From IMG/VR virus record IMGVR_UViG_2718218402_000002: DNA of 21,898 nucleotides; one strand, written 5' to 3'. The notes under the pieces are model-generated. The model was not told the origin of the DNA and made no database searches. It worked only from the letters and a program-made list of their open reading frames with translations. Of this stretch, positions 7,784-15,186 are shown piece after piece. The position numbers and the translations under genes were made by a program. The stretch is from a virus. Its lineage: Duplodnaviria; Heunggongvirae; Uroviricota; Caudoviricetes. Positions within the stretch are counted from its first letter, which is position 1. Every line of letters begins with the position of its first letter.

Positions 7784-8481
7784 ACACTTGCTCCTTTCAG
7801 TCCGAACTTAGCTTTGATTTCTGCGATCTTCGCCAGAGCCTGTGCACGATTTAGAGGTCTACCGCCCATGACAGGAAGTTGTTTTACTGGTTCAGGGATC
7901 GCCTCACCACGGTTAATTCTCGCAGTCATATGGACAAGCTCATCTGCGGCCTTACGGCGTAATTCCGCATCAGTAAGCGCATTGGCCCGCATGTTCTGAT
8001 ACAGGTTGGTAACCAGCCAGTAGTGCGCGTTTGATTTCCACGGATAAGACTCCGCATCCGGATACAGGCCTCGCTTCCGGCAATACTCGTAAACCATATC
8101 AACCAGCTCGCTGACGTTTGGCAGTCCGGCGATAACGGATGCTTCTTCCCGGCACCATGCAACAAACTGCCCGGGTGATGGCAGAAATGGTCGATTCTGC
8201 CGACGGGCTACGCGCATTCCTGCGTTAACCTGTTCCATTGTGGTGATCCCGTTTTCCCGGAAAGCCAGAACCCACTGGCGGCGGATTTCGTTCAGTTCGT
8301 TCTGGTCACGGTTAGCCAGACTCGCCGGGAAAGTTGCCAGTAACTGGCTGAACACACCGTTGATGATCTGCGCTACCTGCTGTACCTGCGGCTTTTCGTC
8401 GTACTGTTCCGGCATGTTGTTGGCGATCCGACGCATCTGCTCACGGTCAAAGTTAACCATCTGTGCGGCGATGTTTTTCAT
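7780..8481 (-). CDS. P: Replication protein P (DnaB loader)
   Basis: 233 aa, near-identical to lambda P as recalled (MKNIAAQMVNFDREQMRRIANNMPEQYDEKPQ...). Confidence 0.95.
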   Translation of the reverse strand: MKNIAAQMVNFDREQMRRIANNMPEQYDEKPQVQQVAQIINGVFSQLLATFPASLANRDQNELNEIRRQWVLAFRENGITTMEQVNAGMRVARRQNRPFLPSPGQFVAWCREEASVIAGLPNVSELVDMVYEYCRKRGLYPDAESYPWKSNAHYWLVTNLYQNMRANALTDAELRRKAADELVHMTARINRGEAIPEPVKQLPVMGGRPLNRAQALAKIAEIKAKFGLKGASV

Positions 8482-9377
8482 AAATCCACCCCGTAAATCC
8501 AGTCAGTGTTTGTCAGGTCGAGTTTTGGTTTGCTGGCTGTCACGCCTGCCTGTTGCTTGTTACGGTTGATTTCGAGCTGGGTCCACTTGTCGCGGAGTTT
8601 GGCCGGGCTCAGCACGTTACCGGACCAGAAGTTGTCCTGGCATGCCCAGCGGAACAGTACGCACATGTCGCGATGGTTACGTCCGTCACGTTCACGCATC
8701 AGGCGGATATCGTTAGCCCACCCTGCAAAATTCGGTTTTCTGGCTGATGGCGCGATGGTCTTCACCATGTCAAACATCCACTCTGCGGCGGTCAGGTCTT
8801 CTGCTGTTCCCCACTTGCTGCCGCTCTGAATTGCAGCATCCGGTTTAACCACAGAAAGATCGTTTTCTGGCTGGTCAGAGGATTCGCCAGAATTCTCTGA
8901 CGAATAATCTTTTCTTTTTTCTTTTGTAATAGTGTCTTTTGTGTCCCCCTGTTTTGAGGGATAGCAATCCCCCAATTTGAGGGATGTTTTATCCCTCGTT
9001 TTAGGGGATTTTCCCTCGTTTTGAGGGATACACCATTCTGAGATGTTTTTATTTGGTCCAAACATGCCGCCTTGCTGCTTGATAATATTCATTCTGACGA
9101 GTTCTAACTTGGCTTCATTGCATCGTTTGACAGGTAACTTTGTAATCTCGCTAAGTTGAGAATCGGTGATTCTGTCCATAGGTTTATTCCACCCATAGGT
9201 TTTACGCAGAATGGCAAGCAGCACTTTAAACTGTCGCTTGGTCAGATCTGCGCCCGAATAAGCCTCAAGCAGCATATTTGATAGTCTGGCGTAACCATCA
9301 TCGAGATCTGCCACATTACGCTCCTGTTCGGCAAAGTTACCTCTGCCGAAGTTGAGTATTTTTGCTGTATTTGTCAT
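8478..9377 (-). CDS. O: Replication initiator O
   Basis: 299 aa, near-identical to lambda O (MTNTAKILNFGRGNFA...). Contains the origin iterons. Confidence 0.95.
   Translation of the reverse strand: MTNTAKILNFGRGNFAEQERNVADLDDGYARLSNMLLEAYSGADLTKRQFKVLLAILRKTYGWNKPMDRITDSQLSEITKLPVKRCNEAKLELVRMNIIKQQGGMFGPNKNISEWCIPQNEGKSPKTRDKTSLKLGDCYPSKQGDTKDTITKEKRKDYSSENSGESSDQPENDLSVVKPDAAIQSGSKWGTAEDLTAAEWMFDMVKTIAPSARKPNFAGWANDIRLMRERDGRNHRDMCVLFRWACQDNFWSGNVLSPAKLRDKWTQLEINRNKQQAGVTASKPKLDLTNTDWIYGVDL
8944..9030. repeat. ori-lambda iterons (four ~19-bp repeats) with adjacent AT-rich tract
   Basis: Four tandem repeats of the form TCCCTC-gtttt-GAGGGA at 8944-8963, 8968-8986, 8991-9009 and 9011-9030; AT-rich stretch at about 8905-8940. 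All inside O. Confidence 0.85.
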
Positions 9378-9409: not shown

Positions 9410-9706
9410 TCAGAATTGCATATCAATTTGCTTAGAGTCCCCGGCGGCCACCGGGGATTTTTTCTTTGTGATTCCATCAAGCGCATACTTAAAAGCCCTA
9501 CTAATCGGACTGATGTCTGATGCCATTCCGAAAGCACACAAGACCGAAGCAATAAACCTCCAGTCTGTTCTGCTTATCTTCGATTCATGACAGCCAATCA
9601 TCTTTGCCAGACCGCGCTGGGTAAGCGTTGACAGGTTGATGAGTAAATCTGTTTCTGCGCGATCAACGTCGCGCTGTGATAGTTTGCTGTAACTTGTTTG
9701 TGTCAT
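9410..9706 (-). CDS. cII: CII-like transcriptional activator (P22 c1 family)
   Basis: 98 aa, MTQTSYSKLSQRDVDRAETDLLINLSTLTQRGLAKMIGCHESKISR; HTH architecture of the cII family but not the lambda cII sequence. Immediately upstream of O. Confidence 0.75.
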   Translation of the reverse strand: MTQTSYSKLSQRDVDRAETDLLINLSTLTQRGLAKMIGCHESKISRTDWRFIASVLCAFGMASDISPISRAFKYALDGITKKKSPVAAGDSKQIDMQF

Positions 9707-9724
9707 TTCTTACTATTCCCATAG

Positions 9725-9758
9725 GTAAATAATCACTAACACTCATCTTTCGATGAGT
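9725..9758 (-). terminator. Possible tR1-like terminator
   Basis: 7-bp stem (ACTCATC/GATGAGT at 9741-9758) followed on the - strand by a moderately U-rich tract. Between nutR and cII. Confidence 0.35.
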
Positions 9759-9770
9759 GCTTAATTAGTT

Positions 9771-9805
9771 ACCGCGTTGTCGGCGGTGCAGATTGATAAA
9801 GAGCG
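9771..9805 (-). promoter_or_regulatory. nutR (boxA plus boxB)
   Basis: - strand boxA CGCTCTTTAT (plus 9796-9805), then 8 nt, then boxB ACCGCCGACAACGCGGT (plus 9771-9787), which matches the P22 nutR boxB as I recall it. Just downstream of the cro stop. Confidence 0.7.
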
Positions 9806-9812
9806 GTGTTAC

Positions 9813-10040
9813 TTATGCAGCCAGAAGGTTCTTTTTGCTTATTTCAAGCATTTCGCTTGCTTGATATTTGCCACCAGAAATCTCTTCGATTTTTGATGCG
9901 TATTTAGTTTTCCCAAAAAACTCAGTCTTAGGGAGGAAGCCGTTTTTGAGCCACTTATAGACAGCCCTTTCGCTAACTCCACAAGCCTTCGCAACTTCAG
10001 GGATGCCGACACCTTTAATCGGCTCATCAAGATTTTGCAT
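9813..10040 (-). CDS. cro: Cro-like repressor
   Basis: Track ORF 9813..10073; likely ATG at 10040 (75 aa). HTH GIPEVAKACGVSERAVYKWLK. Divergent from cI across the operator region. Confidence 0.75.
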   Translation of the reverse strand: MQNLDEPIKGVGIPEVAKACGVSERAVYKWLKNGFLPKTEFFGKTKYASKIEEISGGKYQASEMLEISKKNLLAA

Positions 10041-10055
10041 AGGAATACCCTTTTT

Positions 10056-10125
10056 CGTACTTTCAGTACGCATTATGATTGAACTGAAAGTTTTTGCAAG
10101 TGCTTTAGTATCGTACTCATGGTTC
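10056..10125. promoter_or_regulatory. OR region: three 13-bp palindromic operators with divergent pR and pRM
   Basis: GTACTTTCAGTAC (10057-10069), GAACTGAAAGTTT (10081-10093), GTACTCATGGTTC (10113-10125, over the cI ATG). Candidate pR on - strand: -35 TTGCAA (10094-10099), -10 CATAAT (revcomp of 10072-10077). Candidate pRM -10 TAGTAT (10106-10111). Confidence 0.55.
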
Positions 10126-10826
10126 AGAATGAAAAAGTGCGCAAAGAATTCGCCCAGCGGCTAGCGCAAGCCTGTAAAGAAGCTGGTCTTGATGAACATG
10201 GTAGGGGAATGGCCATAGCCCGTGCCCTTTCTCTTTCGTCCAAAGGCGTTAGCAAATGGTTTAATGCTGAGTCTTTACCACGCCAGGAAAAAATGAATGC
10301 GCTTGCGAAATTTCTAAACGTTGATGTTGTTTGGCTTCAGCACGGCACTTCGTTAAATGGAGCGAATGATGAAGATACTTTTTCAATTGTTGGCAAATTA
10401 AAAAAAGGGTTAGTGCGCGTGGTTGGTGAGGCAATTCTTGGTGTTGATGGTGCCATCGAGATGACCGAAGAGCGCGATGGGTGGCTCAAGATTTATAGCG
10501 ATGATCCAGATGCCTTTGGTCTTCGTGTAAAAGGAGACAGCATGTGGCCCAGAATTAAATCAGGAGAATATGTACTCATTGAGCCTAACACCAAAGTATT
10601 CCCAGGTGATGAAGTGTTTGTCAGAACCATTGAAGGGCACAACATGATCAAGGTTCTTGGCTATGACAGAGACGGAGAATACCAATTTACAAGCATCAAT
10701 CAAGACCACAGGCCAATAACGTTGCCTTATCATCAAGTAGCAAAGGTGGAGTATGTGGCTGGTATTTTGAAGCAATCTCGCCACCTAGATGACATCGAGG
10801 CAAGGGAATGGATTAAAAGTTCGTGA
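10119..10826 (+). CDS. cI: CI prophage repressor (HTH plus S24 LexA-like autopeptidase domain)
   Basis: 235 aa. C-terminal domain has the GDSM Ser motif and downstream Lys typical of RecA-stimulated autocleaving repressors. The ATG sits inside the third operator, suggesting a leaderless pRM transcript. Confidence 0.9.
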   Translation: MVQNEKVRKEFAQRLAQACKEAGLDEHGRGMAIARALSLSSKGVSKWFNAESLPRQEKMNALAKFLNVDVVWLQHGTSLNGANDEDTFSIVGKLKKGLVRVVGEAILGVDGAIEMTEERDGWLKIYSDDPDAFGLRVKGDSMWPRIKSGEYVLIEPNTKVFPGDEVFVRTIEGHNMIKVLGYDRDGEYQFTSINQDHRPITLPYHQVAKVEYVAGILKQSRHLDDIEAREWIKSS

Positions 10827-10923
10827 CTTCATCGTCACATAGCTGGTAACCAATGGCCTGAAGAGACGTTTGGGTGACAAGAAGCATAGGTATTAACAAT
10901 AACTTTCATGGTGATACGAATCA

Positions 10924-11466
10924 GTGGCTAAAAAAGGCGACTTTAAGCCTACCCAGAAAGAGGTTGACCAAGCTATTACTCGCTTGAAAAAAGTAACTTT
11001 TAGCGGAGTTTCGTGGACCGGAAGTGAGGGACGAACCCCAATCTGGTTTAAATTGGATCTCAAAGCTTTTGATGAAATTGGCAACCCAATCACAGGCATA
11101 AGATTTATGCTTCACTGGCGTTCTCCTATCGTTGAAGGGGTGGATATAGTGAAGCTTTCATTTGTGATGTTTCTTCATGACAGGCGCATTTACGCGCTTG
11201 ACCCGTACCCTGCGCATAACAAGTCACACCGTAATAAATCTATAGTGCACCATCCAGATTTTGTTGAGGTGGCTCGAGGTCCTCACTATCACATGTACTT
11301 CGAATCAGCTGGGGAAGAAATTGCACTCAAGCTTGAAACGAACATCAAGCCAGATGATTTTTTTGGCTACTGGAATTATTTTTGCGAGGCGCTTAATATC
11401 ATATATGAAGGCAGCCCACCTTTACCGAATCAAGATAAATCAGGTCAGCTATCATGGGAAATGTAA
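10924..11466 (+). CDS. Hypothetical protein A of the cI-downstream cassette (rexA-position)
   Basis: 180 aa ORF with GTG start and no obvious SD; the first in-frame ATG would give 119 aa. His-rich segment HNKSHRNKSIVHHPDF...PHYHMY. No family recognised. Lower GC than neighbours. Confidence 0.5.
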   Translation: MAKKGDFKPTQKEVDQAITRLKKVTFSGVSWTGSEGRTPIWFKLDLKAFDEIGNPITGIRFMLHWRSPIVEGVDIVKLSFVMFLHDRRIYALDPYPAHNKSHRNKSIVHHPDFVEVARGPHYHMYFESAGEEIALKLETNIKPDDFFGYWNYFCEALNIIYEGSPPLPNQDKSGQLSWEM

Positions 11467-12230
11467 CGTGTTCAACAGTCATATCTAAGCTCGGGTTTGA
11501 ATGCCACCCAATGAGCGACACGTTGCTGCGCGTTATTAGTCCCTTCACATACTACGATGATTGTGAGCAGATAAGCGTATTCGTTCAAGAGATGAGTGGT
11601 CAGTATAGGGTTACAGACTACTGCGATACATTGATGAATATTGAATCACGCGGCATCCACCTGACTAAAAAGAAAATTGATCTGATCAGGTCATCACTCG
11701 CTTCGCAAGGAATTTCATTAAATGACTCTGGAGAGATATCTGCGTGGGCAGATGAGTCGTCCGTTGGACAGGTAACTGCAAATGTTATTCGTGGTGGGAT
11801 TCTTGCATCCGCCCAAACTGCTGATTGGTATGCTGAGGTCAAAGACGATAAGTTCGAAAAATGTGTAATCAGTTACTTAAAATCAGCAGGGCTTGGGAAG
11901 CGACTAGCCTTAAAGGAAAAAGTGAAAGGTATTAGTGGGCATAACATTACTGTTCCGTTAACGCTAAGGAATGAGTCTCGACTAATACCACCAAAACGCG
12001 GGTTTACGGTAAGCCTTGCCAGCAGTAAAGGATGGAATACTGCCCACTCAACAGTTGGGAAGATTGTTGACTTAAGTCAGGTCGTTCCTGACATAAACAA
12101 TAGATTTGTAATAGTTGACAGCGATGGGTTAACACCTGAGCTACAGCAACTATCACTACTATTTAATGATACCGCACGAGTGTTGCCATTCCATACCAGA
12201 GACTCTTGGATTGACTCTCTGGTAGCCTAG
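11454..12230 (+). CDS. Hypothetical protein B of the cI-downstream cassette (rexB-position)
   Basis: 258 aa. The ATG at 11454 overlaps the stop of protein A by 13 nt (alternative ATG at 11511). Soluble-looking, no family recognised. Confidence 0.55.
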   Translation: MGNVTCSTVISKLGFECHPMSDTLLRVISPFTYYDDCEQISVFVQEMSGQYRVTDYCDTLMNIESRGIHLTKKKIDLIRSSLASQGISLNDSGEISAWADESSVGQVTANVIRGGILASAQTADWYAEVKDDKFEKCVISYLKSAGLGKRLALKEKVKGISGHNITVPLTLRNESRLIPPKRGFTVSLASSKGWNTAHSTVGKIVDLSQVVPDINNRFVIVDSDGLTPELQQLSLLFNDTARVLPFHTRDSWIDSLVA

Positions 12231-12231
12231 A

Positions 12232-12262
12232 AAAACCCGGCCTCTGCGCCGGGTTTTCTTTA
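12232..12262 (+). terminator. Intrinsic terminator ending the cI/cassette transcript
   Basis: AAAAA, then CCCGGCC-tctg-cGCCGGG, then TTTTCTTT, directly after the stop of protein B. Symmetric A/T flanks, so possibly bidirectional. Confidence 0.7.
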
Positions 12263-12430
12263 CCTCACGTTCGCCTCCCCTATTTAACATCCGCATATGT
12301 GCTAACCCACGAACTAACACGCCAGCAATACAGTCCTTTCTCCCCTACAGACCAATCTTCAATCTTTGCAAAAATAAATTTCCTTACATATCAAAAACTT
12401 ATCTAATAAAATTAATGAGTTACAAAATTT

Positions 12431-12476
12431 CGTACTTATAGTTCTTGATAATATCGAACTATTAGTTCATTATTAT
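12431..12476 (+). promoter_or_regulatory. Candidate OL/pL
   Basis: Operator-like palindromes related to OR: GTACTTATAGTTC (12432-12444) and GAACTATTAGTTC (12456-12468). -35 TTGATA (12445-12450) and a -10-like CATTAT/TATTAT about 17 bp downstream. Upstream of nutL and N. Confidence 0.45.
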
Positions 12477-12519
12477 CGCCATCAGCAGGATGCTGGCAGC
12501 CAAACGGAACAGATTGGCA

Positions 12520-12555
12520 GGCTCTTTAACTTCGATGGGGCGCTGACAAAGCGCA
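12520..12555 (+). promoter_or_regulatory. nutL (boxA plus boxB)
   Basis: boxA GCTCTTTAAC (12521-12530), then boxB GCGCT-GACAA-AGCGC (12540-12554), a 5-bp stem with GACAA loop matching the P22 nutL boxB as recalled. Confidence 0.7.
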
Positions 12556-12673
12556 AACAGATACCAAACGAGATGGATTTGGCGGTGATGTGAATTGCAG
12601 CTGCAACGACAGCAACCAGAAGATCAGCATCTGGCACATCACCCCCAAAGCCATTTCACATGAGGAAAACATC

Positions 12674-13009
12674 ATGACGGTAATCGTGTACGGGAAATCA
12701 ACATTTGCAGGAAATGCCAAAACTCGCCGTCATGAGCGGCGCAGAAAGCTGGCTATCGAGCGTGATGCTATATGCAACATCATCGATTCGATCTTCGGCA
12801 CAGACAGTGAGGAACCTGTTCAGGAAGCCCCGAGAAAACGTTTAAGCCTTTCTGAAAAAGCAATATCACTCGGAAGCCTTCGCTGCCAGAAGGCAGAAGA
12901 AGTCGAGCGTAAACAGAACCGTATTTACTACCGCAAGCCACGCAGTGAAATGGGTGTGACTTGTGTTGGTCGCCAGAAAATGAAATTAGGCAGCAAACCA
13001 CTTATTTGA
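12674..13009 (+). CDS. N: Antiterminator N (P22 gene 24-like)
   Basis: Track ORF 12590..13009; ATG at 12674 preceded by GAGGAAAA. N-terminal arginine-rich motif GNAKTRRHERRRKLAIERD matches the P22 N RNA-binding motif as recalled. Confidence 0.85.
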   Translation: MTVIVYGKSTFAGNAKTRRHERRRKLAIERDAICNIIDSIFGTDSEEPVQEAPRKRLSLSEKAISLGSLRCQKAEEVERKQNRIYYRKPRSEMGVTCVGRQKMKLGSKPLI

Positions 13010-13017
13010 GGTGAGAT

Positions 13018-13104
13018 ATGGAAGAAGAATTTGAAGAGTTCGAAGAGCATCCGCAGGATGTGATGGAACAATACCAGGACTATCCGTATGACTACGACTA
13101 TTGA
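13018..13104 (+). CDS. Possible small acidic peptide (28 aa)
   Basis: MEEEFEEFEEHPQDVMEQYQDYPYDYDY, with GAGGTGAG upstream. Overlaps the ral start in another frame. Not in the ORF track. Confidence 0.25.
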   Translation: MEEEFEEFEEHPQDVMEQYQDYPYDYDY

Positions 13105-13288
13105 TAAAAATCAATGGTGTGGACAATTCAAGCGATGCAATGGATGCAAGCTGCAATCGGAATGCATGGTTAAGCCTGAAGAAATGTTTCCTGTAATGGA
13201 AGATGGGAAATATGTCGATAAATGGGCAATACGAACGACGGCAATGATTGCCAGAGAACTTGGTAAACAGAACAACAAGGCTGCCTGA
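13088..13288 (+). CDS. ral: Restriction alleviation protein Ral
   Basis: 66 aa, MTTTIDKNQWCGQFKRCNGCKLQSECM...; matches lambda Ral from memory in sequence, size and position just after N. Confidence 0.6.
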   Translation: MTTTIDKNQWCGQFKRCNGCKLQSECMVKPEEMFPVMEDGKYVDKWAIRTTAMIARELGKQNNKAA

Positions 13289-13324
13289 TGGTGGCCTTTA
13301 TTTTCTTATTTGAGAGGAATTAAT

Positions 13325-13948
13325 ATGTCATCAATCCGCTTAACTACGAGAATGAAAGAGGAAATCGCTCGTAACGCTTTAATTAAGTCTGGGGTTTTCA
13401 CTGAACTTGAAGAAGTAACAAAGTTAAAGAACCAGCTTGCACTTGACGCCAGAGTTATTGCGTTTGGCGGGAAAAAGAAAACCGAAGAAGTGGACCAGCT
13501 GGCATCAAAGTTAATGGCTGCAAGTGAGGAACTTCAAAAGCTTGGATGTTCATTTTACTCATGCGATGTCAGTTCAAGTTCGATTTATCTGACTGTATCT
13601 GGAAGAAGGGTTGGCTGGCATTCATACGGAAAAGACGGCAACGGTGAAGATATATTGCTCCCTACCCCCGACAAAGATAAATGCATGTTTGACGCAGAAC
13701 ACAAAATAACAAAAAGGTTTGATGAAATCTGCGCATTGCAACAAAAACTTGAAGCCAGGAAAAAGGATATCGAATCAAATGTATGGGCTGCTTTGAACTC
13801 AGTCACAACAGTTAAGCGACTTATTGAGGTCTGGCCTGAAAGCAAAGAGTTGCTACCAAAAGAAGCAGATAAAGCAAGTGCAGCACTTCCTGCTTTACGG
13901 GTAGAAGATTTGAATAAGATGATTGGACTTCCTTCCGAGGCCGCATAG
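13325..13948 (+). CDS. Hypothetical early-left protein (207 aa)
   Basis: Track ORF 13310..13948 (TTG); likely ATG at 13325. Predicted coiled-coil N-terminal half. No family recognised. Confidence 0.55.
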   Translation: MSSIRLTTRMKEEIARNALIKSGVFTELEEVTKLKNQLALDARVIAFGGKKKTEEVDQLASKLMAASEELQKLGCSFYSCDVSSSSIYLTVSGRRVGWHSYGKDGNGEDILLPTPDKDKCMFDAEHKITKRFDEICALQQKLEARKKDIESNVWAALNSVTTVKRLIEVWPESKELLPKEADKASAALPALRVEDLNKMIGLPSEAA

Positions 13949-13963
13949 TCGGCCTTTATTTTT
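13939..13963 (+). terminator. Intrinsic terminator
   Basis: GGCCG-catagt-CGGCC followed by TTTATTTTT, overlapping the stop of the 207-aa ORF. Confidence 0.6.
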
Positions 13964-13992
13964 GGCACAAACAACAGAATAAACACTGCACT

Positions 13993-14020
13993 GTGTATTC
14001 ATTCCAACGAGTGAATACAC
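13993..14020. promoter_or_regulatory. Perfect 9-bp inverted repeat (GTGTATTCA-N10-TGAATACAC)
   Basis: Read directly in the intergenic region 13964-14121; candidate protein-binding site or RNA stem. Confidence 0.3.
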
Positions 14021-14081
14021 GGAGCAATGTCGCTCGTAACTAAACAGGAGCCGACTTGTTCTGATTATTTGAAATCTTCTT

Positions 14082-14109
14082 TGCCCTCTAATGTGAGGGC
14101 AGTTTTTTT
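14082..14109 (+). terminator. Strong intrinsic terminator directly upstream of an RBS
   Basis: TGCCCTC-taatgt-GAGGGCA followed by GTTTTTTT; GGAGG and the ATG at 14122 follow within 15 nt. Confidence 0.7.
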
Positions 14110-14121
14110 GACGGAGGAATT

Positions 14122-14538
14122 ATGGAAATTACAGATATTCTGGTTAATCCAGATAATTACGACCAATTCAATATCTCTACTCAATCAGTTGATTTAGGTT
14201 GTGCAACTGTCAGCGCATGGCTACTTAATGGTAAACAGTTGGATAAATGCCTTGATGCACATATGACGGTTAACAGCTTCCTTGCAGAAAAAACACACTG
14301 GCAAGATGCTGGAGGGAAATATGCTGGATGGCTTGAAAGCATGGGATTTGAATATCAATCTGATGAAGGTTGGTGGAGCCTTATAGCTGTAACGCCTGAG
14401 ACAATAGAATGCTTCGTTAAATACTCAAACGACGATGACTATAAACACCAGGTAGATTCTGCGATAGAAAGATACAAAAGAAAATCGTTCAACCACGAAA
14501 TATCATCAGTTCTTGATTTCATAGAAGTCTTCAAATAA
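14122..14538 (+). CDS. Hypothetical protein (138 aa)
   Basis: Good RBS (GGAGG). Acidic, Trp-rich. Same length as lambda Gam but the sequence does not resemble Gam as I recall it. Confidence 0.6.
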   Translation: MEITDILVNPDNYDQFNISTQSVDLGCATVSAWLLNGKQLDKCLDAHMTVNSFLAEKTHWQDAGGKYAGWLESMGFEYQSDEGWWSLIAVTPETIECFVKYSNDDDYKHQVDSAIERYKRKSFNHEISSVLDFIEVFK

Positions 14539-14622
14539 GCCGCCTGAGCGCGGCTTTACCGCATACCAATAATGCTTCACCAGAGGCATTTTCGTTATGC
14601 AATCAAACAGAAGGAGCATCCT

Positions 14623-14793
14623 ATGCAACAGTTCGCTATTGCAGGGGCGGCATCGGTTCGCCCTTTCAACCCGATTTTATCGGTACAGCATTCACGAAAA
14701 AACATTTTAACCGGAGCAGACTTTAAACAACCAAGAATGAAAAGTTTGCTCGAAAAGCTTTGGGATATTTTGAAACAACAAGGCCGTCCATGA
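14623..14793 (+). CDS. cIII: CIII-like protein (FtsH inhibitor family)
   Basis: Track ORF 14572..14793; ATG at 14623 preceded by AAGGAG. MQQFAIAG...KSLLEKLWDILKQQGRP resembles lambda CIII (MQYAIAG...ESLLERITRKLRDGWKRLIDILNQPG). Confidence 0.6.
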   Translation: MQQFAIAGAASVRPFNPILSVQHSRKNILTGADFKQPRMKSLLEKLWDILKQQGRP

Positions 14794-14897
14794 GTTTTAC
14801 AGATAACTGGTCAGACGAAGAATTCATTCGTCAGATGAACAAAATGCTCAATCAGCACAAAGAACAGGAGAAAGATGATGATTCTGACTCTGAATGA
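14790..14897 (+). CDS. Possible small acidic ORF (35 aa) at the kil position
   Basis: The ATG overlaps the cIII stop (ATGA). MSFTDNWSDEEFIRQMNKMLNQHKEQEKDDDSDSE. Not in the track. Confidence 0.3.
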   Translation: MSFTDNWSDEEFIRQMNKMLNQHKEQEKDDDSDSE

Positions 14898-15186
14898 TAA
14901 GCGTGAAATATCGCAAATAATCGCAAGTTTTACTGATGAAGATTACGAGCGAATCAACAGTGAAGTTGATCGCCTCTGCAAACGTTGCGACCCAATAAGC
15001 GAAATGCTTCGCTCATATAAACCAGATGAACACACTAAGGACGCTATCGACTGGCTGGAAGATGATGACTGTAACTATCAGGAAAAAGCCGCTGAATGGT
15101 TCTGGGATGCAATAACCGAAAGAGTTAAGGCTGAATATGCCTTCGCAATATTCAAACGCAGACATATTTATGGAGAAGCTGCATGA
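14875..15186 (+). CDS. Hypothetical protein (103 aa) immediately upstream of recT
   Basis: RBS AGGAG. Its stop overlaps the recT ATG (ATGA). Occupies the gam-equivalent position; no family recognised. Confidence 0.55.
   Translation: MMILTLNDKREISQIIASFTDEDYERINSEVDRLCKRCDPISEMLRSYKPDEHTKDAIDWLEDDDCNYQEKAAEWFWDAITERVKAEYAFAIFKRRHIYGEAA

Follow-up and report, generated by a model that had tools for sequence, protein, structure and literature searches.

What occupies the slot between the cI repressor gene and the leftward operator and promoter (OL/pL), in which bacteriophage lambda keeps rexA and rexB, when the genes found there resemble neither of them? The question is raised by a stretch of 21,898 nucleotides (nt) of an Escherichia coli lambdoid prophage, IMG/VR record IMGVR_UViG_2718218402_000002 (hereafter the window, by which we mean this whole stretch), whose map is drawn inverted relative to that of lambda and in which two overlapping genes, here called A (180 amino acids, aa) and B (258 aa), follow cI. 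An earlier note on this DNA had proposed that the pair is a lysogen-expressed exclusion or abortive-infection module. Our analysis puts the probability that A-B is an anti-phage defence module at roughly 0.65, because of the slot itself, the likely dependence of the pair on the repressor operon, the hotspot behaviour of the slot, the strong purifying selection on both genes, two independent computational predictions of defence and the predicted nuclease-superfamily domain of B.

A conserved two-gene module in the rexAB slot

The coordinates of the open reading frames (ORFs) and the RefSeq coding sequences (CDSs) bear out the gene structure described in the earlier note, namely two overlapping ORFs on the same strand after cI, the first with a GTG start, and the RefSeq annotation of identical DNA in strain D1 has the same CDSs for A, B and an N-like gene. 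The start that had been assigned to the cassette, 10827, is the first base after the cI stop codon, and the terminator noticed ahead of OL/pL, nutL and N was found as a hairpin (12229-12259), followed by operators, a pL-like promoter, boxB and the N-like gene. The rexAB position is likewise borne out, as the spacings mirror those of lambda cI-rexA-rexB-OL: 97 nt separate cI from the first gene here and 112 nt in lambda, while the last gene is 201 nt from OL here and 173 nt in lambda.

A and B are genuine genes. Homologs reach down to ~20% identity, full-length ones are found in Enterobacter, Klebsiella, Salmonella, Cronobacter, Kosakonia, Yersinia, Pantoea, Providencia, Xenorhabdus, Serratia and others, and AlphaFold models both proteins well (mean predicted local distance difference test, pLDDT, 86.8 and predicted template modelling score, pTM, 0.83 for A; 82.1 and 0.68 for B). 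Judged from the ratio of non-synonymous to synonymous substitution rates (omega), which is 0.06-0.09 for A and 0.02 for B against relatives ~87-91% identical (synonymous divergence, dS, at least 1), both genes are under strong purifying selection. At each of the nine A-B junctions that were inspected, the end of A runs into the start of B, either by 13 nt, as in the window copy, or by ATGA, and the divergence of A from the window copy correlates with that of B (r = 0.99, 52 haplotypes), with A diverging faster than B in every comparison. The N-terminus MAK is conserved, and among nine diverse homologs the start codon of A is GTG in seven, TTG in one and ATG in one. The possibility that A and B are paralogs was rejected (hhalign probability 0.2%).

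The pair is found behind a wide variety of repressors. Among 94 B loci pooled from genomes, phages and IMG/VR, an A-like ORF lies immediately upstream of B in 93 and a same-strand repressor-like ORF lies upstream in 91, within 150 nt in 71, and clustering of these repressors gives 18 groups at 60% identity and 10 at 40%. The order repressor, A, B, which is kept in 91 of the 94 loci, extends to Pseudomonas phage phPA-G and to a prophage of Helicobacter (gamma- and epsilon-proteobacterial, respectively), and in Burkholderia phi644-2 the A-B pair adjoins cII, with no repressor recognised upstream. In the Pseudomonas phage (VB_PaD_phPA-G, PP083311) the A-family member is an unannotated 194-aa ORF (L011:2920-3504; E 1.4e-10) before the DUF1828 gene; CDS0028 (L011:2180-2830), just before this ORF, resembles PADLOC PDC-S48. 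Within E. coli, the exact window cassette (type 1) is present in 65 of 5426 complete genomes, and a second type, the gp49/gp48 pair of phage ev207, which is ~40% (A) and 51% (B) identical to type 1, in 241 of 5426, including Nissle 1917 and the E. coli type strain; relatives altogether occur in ~5% of complete E. coli genomes. The family was found in prophage or viral contexts only, and no B homolog was found on plasmids.

As delimited by blastn, the mobile unit consists of a short leader followed by A, B and the terminator: where cassettes lie behind unrelated repressors, their homology to the window begins at 10851 for close relatives or at 10893-10896 for relatives of ~80% identity, and ends at 12257-12268 in all contexts. 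The leader shared in this way is at most 30-73 nt long and leaves little or no room for a promoter, and a promoter scan found no consensus promoter between cI and A. With its terminator and so short a leader, the shared module is therefore most likely dependent on transcription of the repressor operon, and co-transcription of A and B with the repressor from pRM/pRE would be the parsimonious reading, cI being presumably the first gene of a lysogenic operon that includes both.

The exchange of cargo behind repressors can be observed directly. The 2011 outbreak strain O104:H4 2011C-3493 carries the window cassette, at 98.6% nt identity, behind a different cI and cro (L015:2915-4221), and the window cI, with one residue changed, carries in the cI-N slot of other strains an unrelated hypothetical ORF of 299 aa (WP_000076839/840), which has no PADLOC match. 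E. coli prophages that share the cI WP_000428098 hold either of two cargoes in the slot (L098:1701-3164, L099:1834-3175), one made up of a DUF3024 (PDC-S43) gene, a 162-aa ORF and a 206-aa ORF with a hydrophobic C-terminus, the other of a HigB toxin, a helix-turn-helix (HTH) protein and a 134-aa ORF; the slot is thereby directly shown to be a hotspot for cargo. The alternative cargo ORFs were considered as relatives of A or B and rejected, being unrelated to either. In Providencia and Izhakiella prophages a DUF3024 gene lies between the repressor and A (PADLOC PDC-S43, E 5.7e-37), so that two candidate systems are stacked in one operon. The region between cI and N, home to rexAB and bstA, is known as a hotspot of mosaicism, and the slot is highly transcribed (PMC8585504). 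Acquisition of the cassette had been argued in the earlier note from a GC content visibly lower than that of its flanks. That argument is wrong, as the cassette has 43.6% GC and its surroundings 44.8% (cI), 42.1% (cro), 42.9% (spacer to N), 47.6% (N) and 41.2% (13010-15000), with 46.1% over the whole window; the status of the cassette as cargo is shown instead by the module swapping.

Sequence and predicted structure of A and B

The first protein, A, is soluble and beta-rich, with a confident AlphaFold model and no recognisable fold. Its family is very small: when 1.84 billion representative proteins were searched exhaustively with a profile, only 43 clusters matched at E <= 1e-3, nearly all of them standalone proteins of ~165-185 aa or shorter fragments. 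Across 35 sequences, down to 17% identity, R88, H121, H123 and F153 are invariant and K22, W31, P168 and Q175 nearly so, while H102 and N104 are invariant in the 34 closer relatives, H102-x-N104 being the majority pattern in the deep alignment. The HxH motif is kept in the A-family ORFs of phPA-G (HPHLHM) and of the Helicobacter prophage (CHEHI). A His-rich stretch had been singled out before as a possible metal ligand, and it is conserved in part: H102, H121 and H123 (plus N104) are retained, whereas H98 and H109 are not conserved and H110 is conserved among close relatives only. On the predicted strands, the H-x-N ... H-x-H arrangement would be compatible with a metal or active site.

The C-terminal tail of A deserves separate mention, as its residues 172-180 have a pLDDT below 50 and yet the tail is conserved (P168, G174-Q175). 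Conservation for the sake of a ribosome-binding site was ruled out, because the G-Q codons, 17-22 nt upstream of the B start, are too far from it. A conserved tail of low model confidence would be the signature of a docking peptide, for which we consider this segment a candidate.

The second protein, B, is predicted to have two domains, an N-terminal DUF1828 domain with a putative type III secretion system (T3SS)-chaperone/YbjN-like fold and a C-terminal domain with a putative PD-(D/E)xK fold. In the AlphaFold model, the structural elements of residues 132-258 follow the order alpha-beta-beta-beta-alpha-beta-alpha-beta-alpha known from the nuclease fold, which contains the PD-(D/E)xK core order. 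Pfam does not report DUF1829 for the window B; the domain is found above its cut-off of 22.2 bits in the homologs phi644-2 gp47 (23.4 bits) and a Helicobacter protein (29.1 bits), and the C-terminal domain of B aligns throughout with DUF1829-positive homologs. The homolog WP_000968518 carries DUF1829 by HHsearch, and Pfam places DUF1829 in the PDDEXK clan (Table S5, PMC13092281). In a deep alignment of nine sequences, including Pseudomonas, Burkholderia and Helicobacter homologs at 20-27% identity, the invariant residues are C6, C17, D36, D55, D58 and G93-E94-I95 in the N-terminal domain and G159, S161, H163 and D206 in the C-terminal domain, with K203 present in eight of the nine. H163 occupies the position of the usual catalytic Asp. 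The helix that follows strand 3 carries K203 and D206; in the NgoMIV/Cfr10I class, the acidic residue is contributed by this helix.

The earlier statement that neither protein resembles a recognised family is borne out only in part. Both are in PHROGs (A as phrog_2017, B as phrog_1960), B passes the Pfam threshold for DUF1828 (40.9 bits vs a cut-off of 22), and both weakly match the PADLOC pair PDC-M24A/B, A with an E of 1.5e-3; A also scores 21.1 bits with Pfam DUF6978, vs a gathering score of 29.6. The profile and defence-system searches suggested in the earlier note yielded the PDC-M24A/B and DUF1828 matches, that of A being weak, and structure prediction yielded confident models with two predicted domains in B and no recognisable fold in A. 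Sequence searches of the PDB with A, B and a deep B profile gave chance matches at most, the sole match in BFVD was one uncharacterised siphovirus protein, and A had no match to a kinase or other enzyme domain in Pfam and NCBIfam, NCBIfam giving no match for either protein.

Comparison with known and predicted defence systems

Among the closest known systems is lambda RexA/RexB, with which A-B shares the slot between cI and OL/pL, the orientation of cI, two genes with a terminator and similar spacings, as well as, presumably, expression in the lysogen with the repressor and a role in exclusion. The proteins themselves are different, in agreement with what had been noticed before: no homology of A or B to RexA or RexB was found (blastp E > 1; A and B family profile scores negative). 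RexB is a polytopic membrane protein with four transmembrane segments and a maximum 19-residue Kyte-Doolittle hydropathy (KD19) of 2.39, whereas A and B, with maxima of 1.22 and 0.79, are soluble and contain no hydrophobic or transmembrane segment and no signal peptide. The folds also differ, A being beta-rich with no recognisable fold and B combining a predicted chaperone-like domain with a PD-(D/E)xK fold. A mechanism based on membrane depolarisation is therefore unlikely, and a membrane mechanism was rejected, given that neither protein has a hydrophobic segment.

BstA of Salmonella prophage BTP1 and relatives has the same conserved position just downstream of the prophage repressor (PMC8585504). 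Unlike A-B, it consists of one protein only and is paired with a cognate DNA element that confers self-immunity (aba); no aba-like element was identified here. At E <= 1, PADLOC and Pfam returned only PDC-M24, DUF1828 and DUF6978 for A and B, where the presence of a BstA model in PADLOC v2.0.0 is unconfirmed and no direct comparison with BstA was made.

A further likeness is to PADLOC PDC-M24, which has the same order of two adjacent, co-oriented genes and agrees in the Pfam domains DUF1828, DUF1829 (reported for homologs of B) and, marginally, DUF6978. B matches PDC-M24B with an E from 6e-7 to 4.5e-13 when relatives are included: the match of the window B (6.3e-7 and 7e-7) covers the N-terminal ~110 residues only, and those of the ev207-type, phi644-2 and Helicobacter homologs (7e-10 to 4.5e-13) are near full length. 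The window proteins are thus distant from PDC-M24, A (E 1.5e-3) as well as B. The PDCs are guilt-by-embedding candidates, taken from cassettes nested in restriction-modification (RM), BREX, DISARM or Hma loci (bioRxiv 10.1101/2024.01.29.577857), and PDC-M24, unlike A-B, was defined outside prophage immunity regions. A second prediction comes from DefensePredictor, in which the type-2 B proteins WP_000968518 and WP_000968517 are each listed as a 'Predicted novel defense gene' with log-odds of 5.6-6.3; a phenotype was seen in 45% of tested predictions, which limits the weight of this listing (PMC13092281).

In the same study, HipAD/DS-6 is a validated two-gene E. coli defence system, and DUF1829 was validated there solely in DS-6B/HipAD (PMC13092281). 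Its second protein has DUF1829, as do homologs of B, and is predicted to bind its partner and DNA. The partner, encoded by the first gene, is however a HipA-family kinase and not DUF6978-like, and DUF1829 is fused to DUF3037 and not to DUF1828. Effectors of the Can2/Card1, NucC and Shedu types resemble B in joining an N-terminal regulatory domain to a C-terminal PD-(D/E)xK-fold domain, whereas A-B has no CARF, SAVED or DUF4263 domain and no cyclic-nucleotide synthase in the locus, B lacks the canonical catalytic motif, and a separate small partner, A, is needed. The 'overlapping exclusion genes' of Pseudomonas phage Fc02 were also considered and set aside as an unrelated Mu-like system.

Proposed function and alternatives

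Defence cassettes attached to the repressor operon in the cI-N hotspot are of a known kind, and specialists would anticipate such a role here; relatives have already been listed as candidates by others, while A and B are uncharacterised and their family is flagged computationally only. The exclusion or abortive-infection role first proposed is partly supported, by evidence that is indirect throughout, in that the slot, the order repressor, A, B, the module with its own terminator and the two defence predictions speak for it and the low-GC argument does not.

Several observations weigh against the explanation that we favour below. PDC-M24 is itself a candidate system, and the links of A to PDC-M24A and DUF6978 are weak, with only five of the 35 A-family members matching PDC-M24A (PADLOC) and three matching DUF6978 (Pfam) at 1e-3. 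The nine B sequences have no conserved D...(D/E)xK, and none on strand 3, so that nuclease activity is doubtful. The type-2 B proteins are absent from Tables S6-S8 of DefensePredictor, which list tested and validated systems (PMC13092281), and in the literature on DUF1828, DUF1829, DUF6978, PDC-M24, HipAD and Nissle prophage 3 we found no functional test of either family. The DUF1829 protein of HipAD is presumed to be the non-toxic partner (PMC13092281), which favours a rival scheme with A as the effector. Finally, the commensals SE15 and IAI1, which lack homologs of the Nissle 1917 pair, also resist lambda and stx phages (PMC5987069).

The explanation that we favour, which as a whole we put, tentatively, at somewhat under even odds, is a lysogen-expressed exclusion or abortive-infection module of two proteins that form a complex, in which A would be the sensor or regulator and the PD-(D/E)xK-fold domain of B a nucleic-acid-directed effector. 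A and B would extend the prophage repressor operon, with no promoter of their own and a terminator at the end, and would be made in the lysogen by read-through from pRM/pRE, with the weak GTG start keeping translation of A low and B being translationally coupled to A. In the cytosol, the conserved, disordered C-terminal tail of A might dock on the chaperone-like DUF1828 domain of B. The faster-evolving A, with its invariant HxH (plus H/N) putative metal site, would then sense infection or regulate the complex, and the DUF1829 domain of B could act on nucleic acid through a non-canonical set of residues, H163 together with K203 and D206, the last two being on the helix that also provides the acidic residue in the NgoMIV/Cfr10I class. 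Upon prophage induction, transcription of the repressor operon would stop, sparing the phage's own lytic growth. The data show the gene structure, the position, the synteny, the module boundaries, the purifying selection, the predicted fold classes and the conserved residues, and from there co-transcription with cI, binding between A and B, the defence phenotype and the choice of effector subunit are inferred.

We also considered a bolder version, to which we give clearly poorer odds, in which A-B is a new immune module hard-wired to repressor operons, with A a metalloprotein of new fold built around HxH and B a chaperone-like domain joined to a re-wired PD-(D/E)xK fold, together killing or arresting the cell by a novel chemistry upon superinfection. 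Placement behind the repressor would here amount to built-in self-immunity, as the module would be switched off at prophage induction.

The main alternative, itself unlikely, which keeps the defence role and reverses the parts, is a toxin-antitoxin-like system with A as the effector, a metalloenzyme of new fold with HxH, and B as the sensor or antitoxin; DUF1828 would sequester A, the degenerate DUF1829 domain would bind phage DNA or the module's own operator, and infection would free A. This scheme would fit the lack of a canonical nuclease motif in B, the T3SS-chaperone fold as one that holds partners, the enzyme-like pattern of A (invariant R88, H121 and H123, with H102 and N104 among closer relatives), and the weak start of A together with its coupling to B, which would hold A at or below the level of B. 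It also has a precedent in the validated DS-6B/HipAD DUF1829 protein, which is encoded second like B, is a predicted DNA binder and is the partner of a toxin kinase. On the other hand, A evolves faster than B (omega 0.06-0.09 vs 0.02; 39% vs 51% identity between cassette types), which would be an uncommon pattern for a catalytic toxin compared with its antitoxin, and the most conserved part of B is the acidic cluster of its N-terminal domain, which a pure chaperone role does not explain.

Outside defence, A-B might serve prophage maintenance or addiction, for example by post-segregational killing upon loss of the prophage, or be an accessory regulator of the prophage's own lysis-lysogeny decision or induction whose production has to accompany that of the repressor, which we regard as quite unlikely. 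Such a role would fit the very tight linkage to repressors of many immunity types in three classes of proteobacteria, the toxin-antitoxin-like layout of the operon, the occurrence of a genuine HigB toxin-antitoxin pair in the same slot of another prophage, and the retention of the cassette in the defective prophage 3 of Nissle 1917. Yet the window cI works with entirely different cargo elsewhere, and A and B are therefore dispensable for the genetic switch; moreover, all characterised occupants of the slot (RexAB, BstA) are exclusion systems (PMC8585504), the family is flagged by two independent defence-prediction approaches, and prophage toxin-antitoxin modules often act as abortive-infection systems, so that this explanation overlaps with the defence readings. 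Host-directed lysogenic-conversion cargo (stress tolerance, virulence modulation) that merely uses a highly transcribed site is improbable, for although the slot is highly transcribed and mosaic, bstA was first tied to virulence phenotypes (PMC8585504) and the cassette occurs in pathogens and commensals alike, A and B have no signal peptide or transmembrane segment and no metabolic or virulence domain (Pfam, NCBIfam), their family is found in prophage and viral contexts only and on no plasmid, and the definition of the related PDC-M24 comes from cassettes nested within RM, BREX or DISARM loci. Taken together, the non-defence roles (addiction or regulation and lysogenic conversion) are a rather doubtful prospect.

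Layout of the locus and neighbouring features

The coordinates of the locus are collected in the table.

Table. Features of the cI-N region. Positions refer to the window, except those with an L prefix, which refer to loci in the genomes compared.
Feature	Position	Strand	Basis or remark
O	8478-9377	-	ORF list + RefSeq annotation of strain D1
cII	9410-9706	-	ORF list + RefSeq annotation of strain D1
cro-like gene	9813-10040	-	ORF list + RefSeq annotation of strain D1
OR operators between cro and cI	10057-10069, 10081-10093, 10113-10125		motif search GWACTnnnAGTWC
cI-type repressor	10119-10826	+	Pfam Peptidase_S24 3.5e-16, HTH_3; RefSeq 'S24 family peptidase'
cI-A spacer/leader	10827-10923	+	97 nt between cI and A
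Gene A, 180 aa, GTG start	10924-11466	+	ORF list, RefSeq
Codons of A putative metal/active site, H102-x-N104	11227-11235	+	
Codons of A putative metal/active site, H121-x-H123	11284-11292	+	
A C-terminal tail codons (P168...S173-G174-Q175...)	11427-11463	+	overlaps B start
Gene B, 258 aa, ATG start	11454-12230	+	ORF list, RefSeq
B N-terminal domain, aa 1-125, DUF1828	11454-11828	+	
B C-terminal domain, aa 130-258, DUF1829-type predicted PD-(D/E)xK fold	11841-12230	+	
Intrinsic terminator, hairpin + U-tract	12229-12259	+	GC-rich hairpin, then UUUUCUUU; dG -17 kcal/mol, z = -3.0 vs shuffled sequences
OL operators	12432-12444, 12456-12468		motif search GWACTnnnAGTWC
pL-like promoter, TTGATA, 17 nt spacer, CATTAT	12445-12473	+	promoter scan; two OL copies bracket promoter
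nutL boxB GCGCTGACAAAGCGC	12540-12554	+	exact string found
N-like antiterminator, far edge of slot	12674-13009	+	ORF list, RefSeq CDS same position
299-aa alternative cargo, E. coli MSB1_7A, MZ1211	L014:1808-2707, L016:1808-2707		
DUF3024 insertions between repressor and A	L004:3052-3393, L005:3053-3394, L008:3044-3385		

The operator, a 13-bp palindrome, has nine matches in the window vs 1.4 expected, clustered at OR (three) and OL (two). We take GCGCTGACAAAGCGC at 12540 to be a P22-type boxB-left, and the arginine-rich motif AKTRRHERRRKLA of the N-like gene resembles that of P22 N. The terminator hairpin was not flagged by a simple consensus terminator scan. Further repeats were seen, namely a small hairpin GTGAC-N6-GTCAC at 10822-10839 across the cI stop codon, which has a terminator-like score on the minus strand only and lacks a U-tract on the plus strand; a 12-nt inverted repeat (TACCAGAGACTC / GACTCTCTGGTA, 7-nt spacer) at 12194-12224, within the last codons of B and just before the terminator hairpin; and a 23-nt inverted repeat (87% complementarity, 42-nt spacer) at 12570-12657, between the nutL boxB and the N start codon. 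An Rfam scan of 9700-13100 gave no credible match. Other accessory genes nearby include Ral antirestriction (13088-13288) and an Nmad5-family putative nucleotide-modification protein (13310-13948), followed by a 138-aa ORF of no assigned function (14122-14538), and an MT-A70 methyltransferase lies between ninB and ninD in the nin region.

Nissle 1917 and wider significance

The ev207-type cassette is present, 100% identical, in the defective lambdoid prophage 3 of E. coli Nissle 1917 (EcN; CIW80_RS24100/24095, L100:3001-4307), where it forms the two 'hypothetical' genes between sieB and cI; these are probably EcN_1291/1292, matched by gene order only, and the pair is absent from SE15, IAI1 and MG1655. 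A 2018 study concluded that a factor of prophage 3 besides 'pr' must explain the full resistance of EcN to lambda and Shiga toxin (Stx) phages (PMC5987069). If A-B were the new kind of immune module outlined above, it could be this missing prophage-3 factor behind the complete lambda and Stx phage resistance of EcN.

Defence cassettes downstream of the repressor, such as RexAB and BstA, protect lysogens and shape the spread of phages, including Stx-converting and therapeutic ones. The A-B pair is common and is found in medically relevant strains (the O104:H4 strain of the 2011 outbreak, the probiotic Nissle 1917 and the E. coli type strain), and it keeps the same place across proteobacterial classes while consisting of one protein with no recognisable fold and one uncharacterised pair of DUF domains. 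A negative phenotype would provide a calibration point for two defence-prediction methods, and a positive one would establish a new two-component system, assign a function to DUF1828, DUF1829 and DUF6978-like proteins and offer a possible account of the resistance of EcN.

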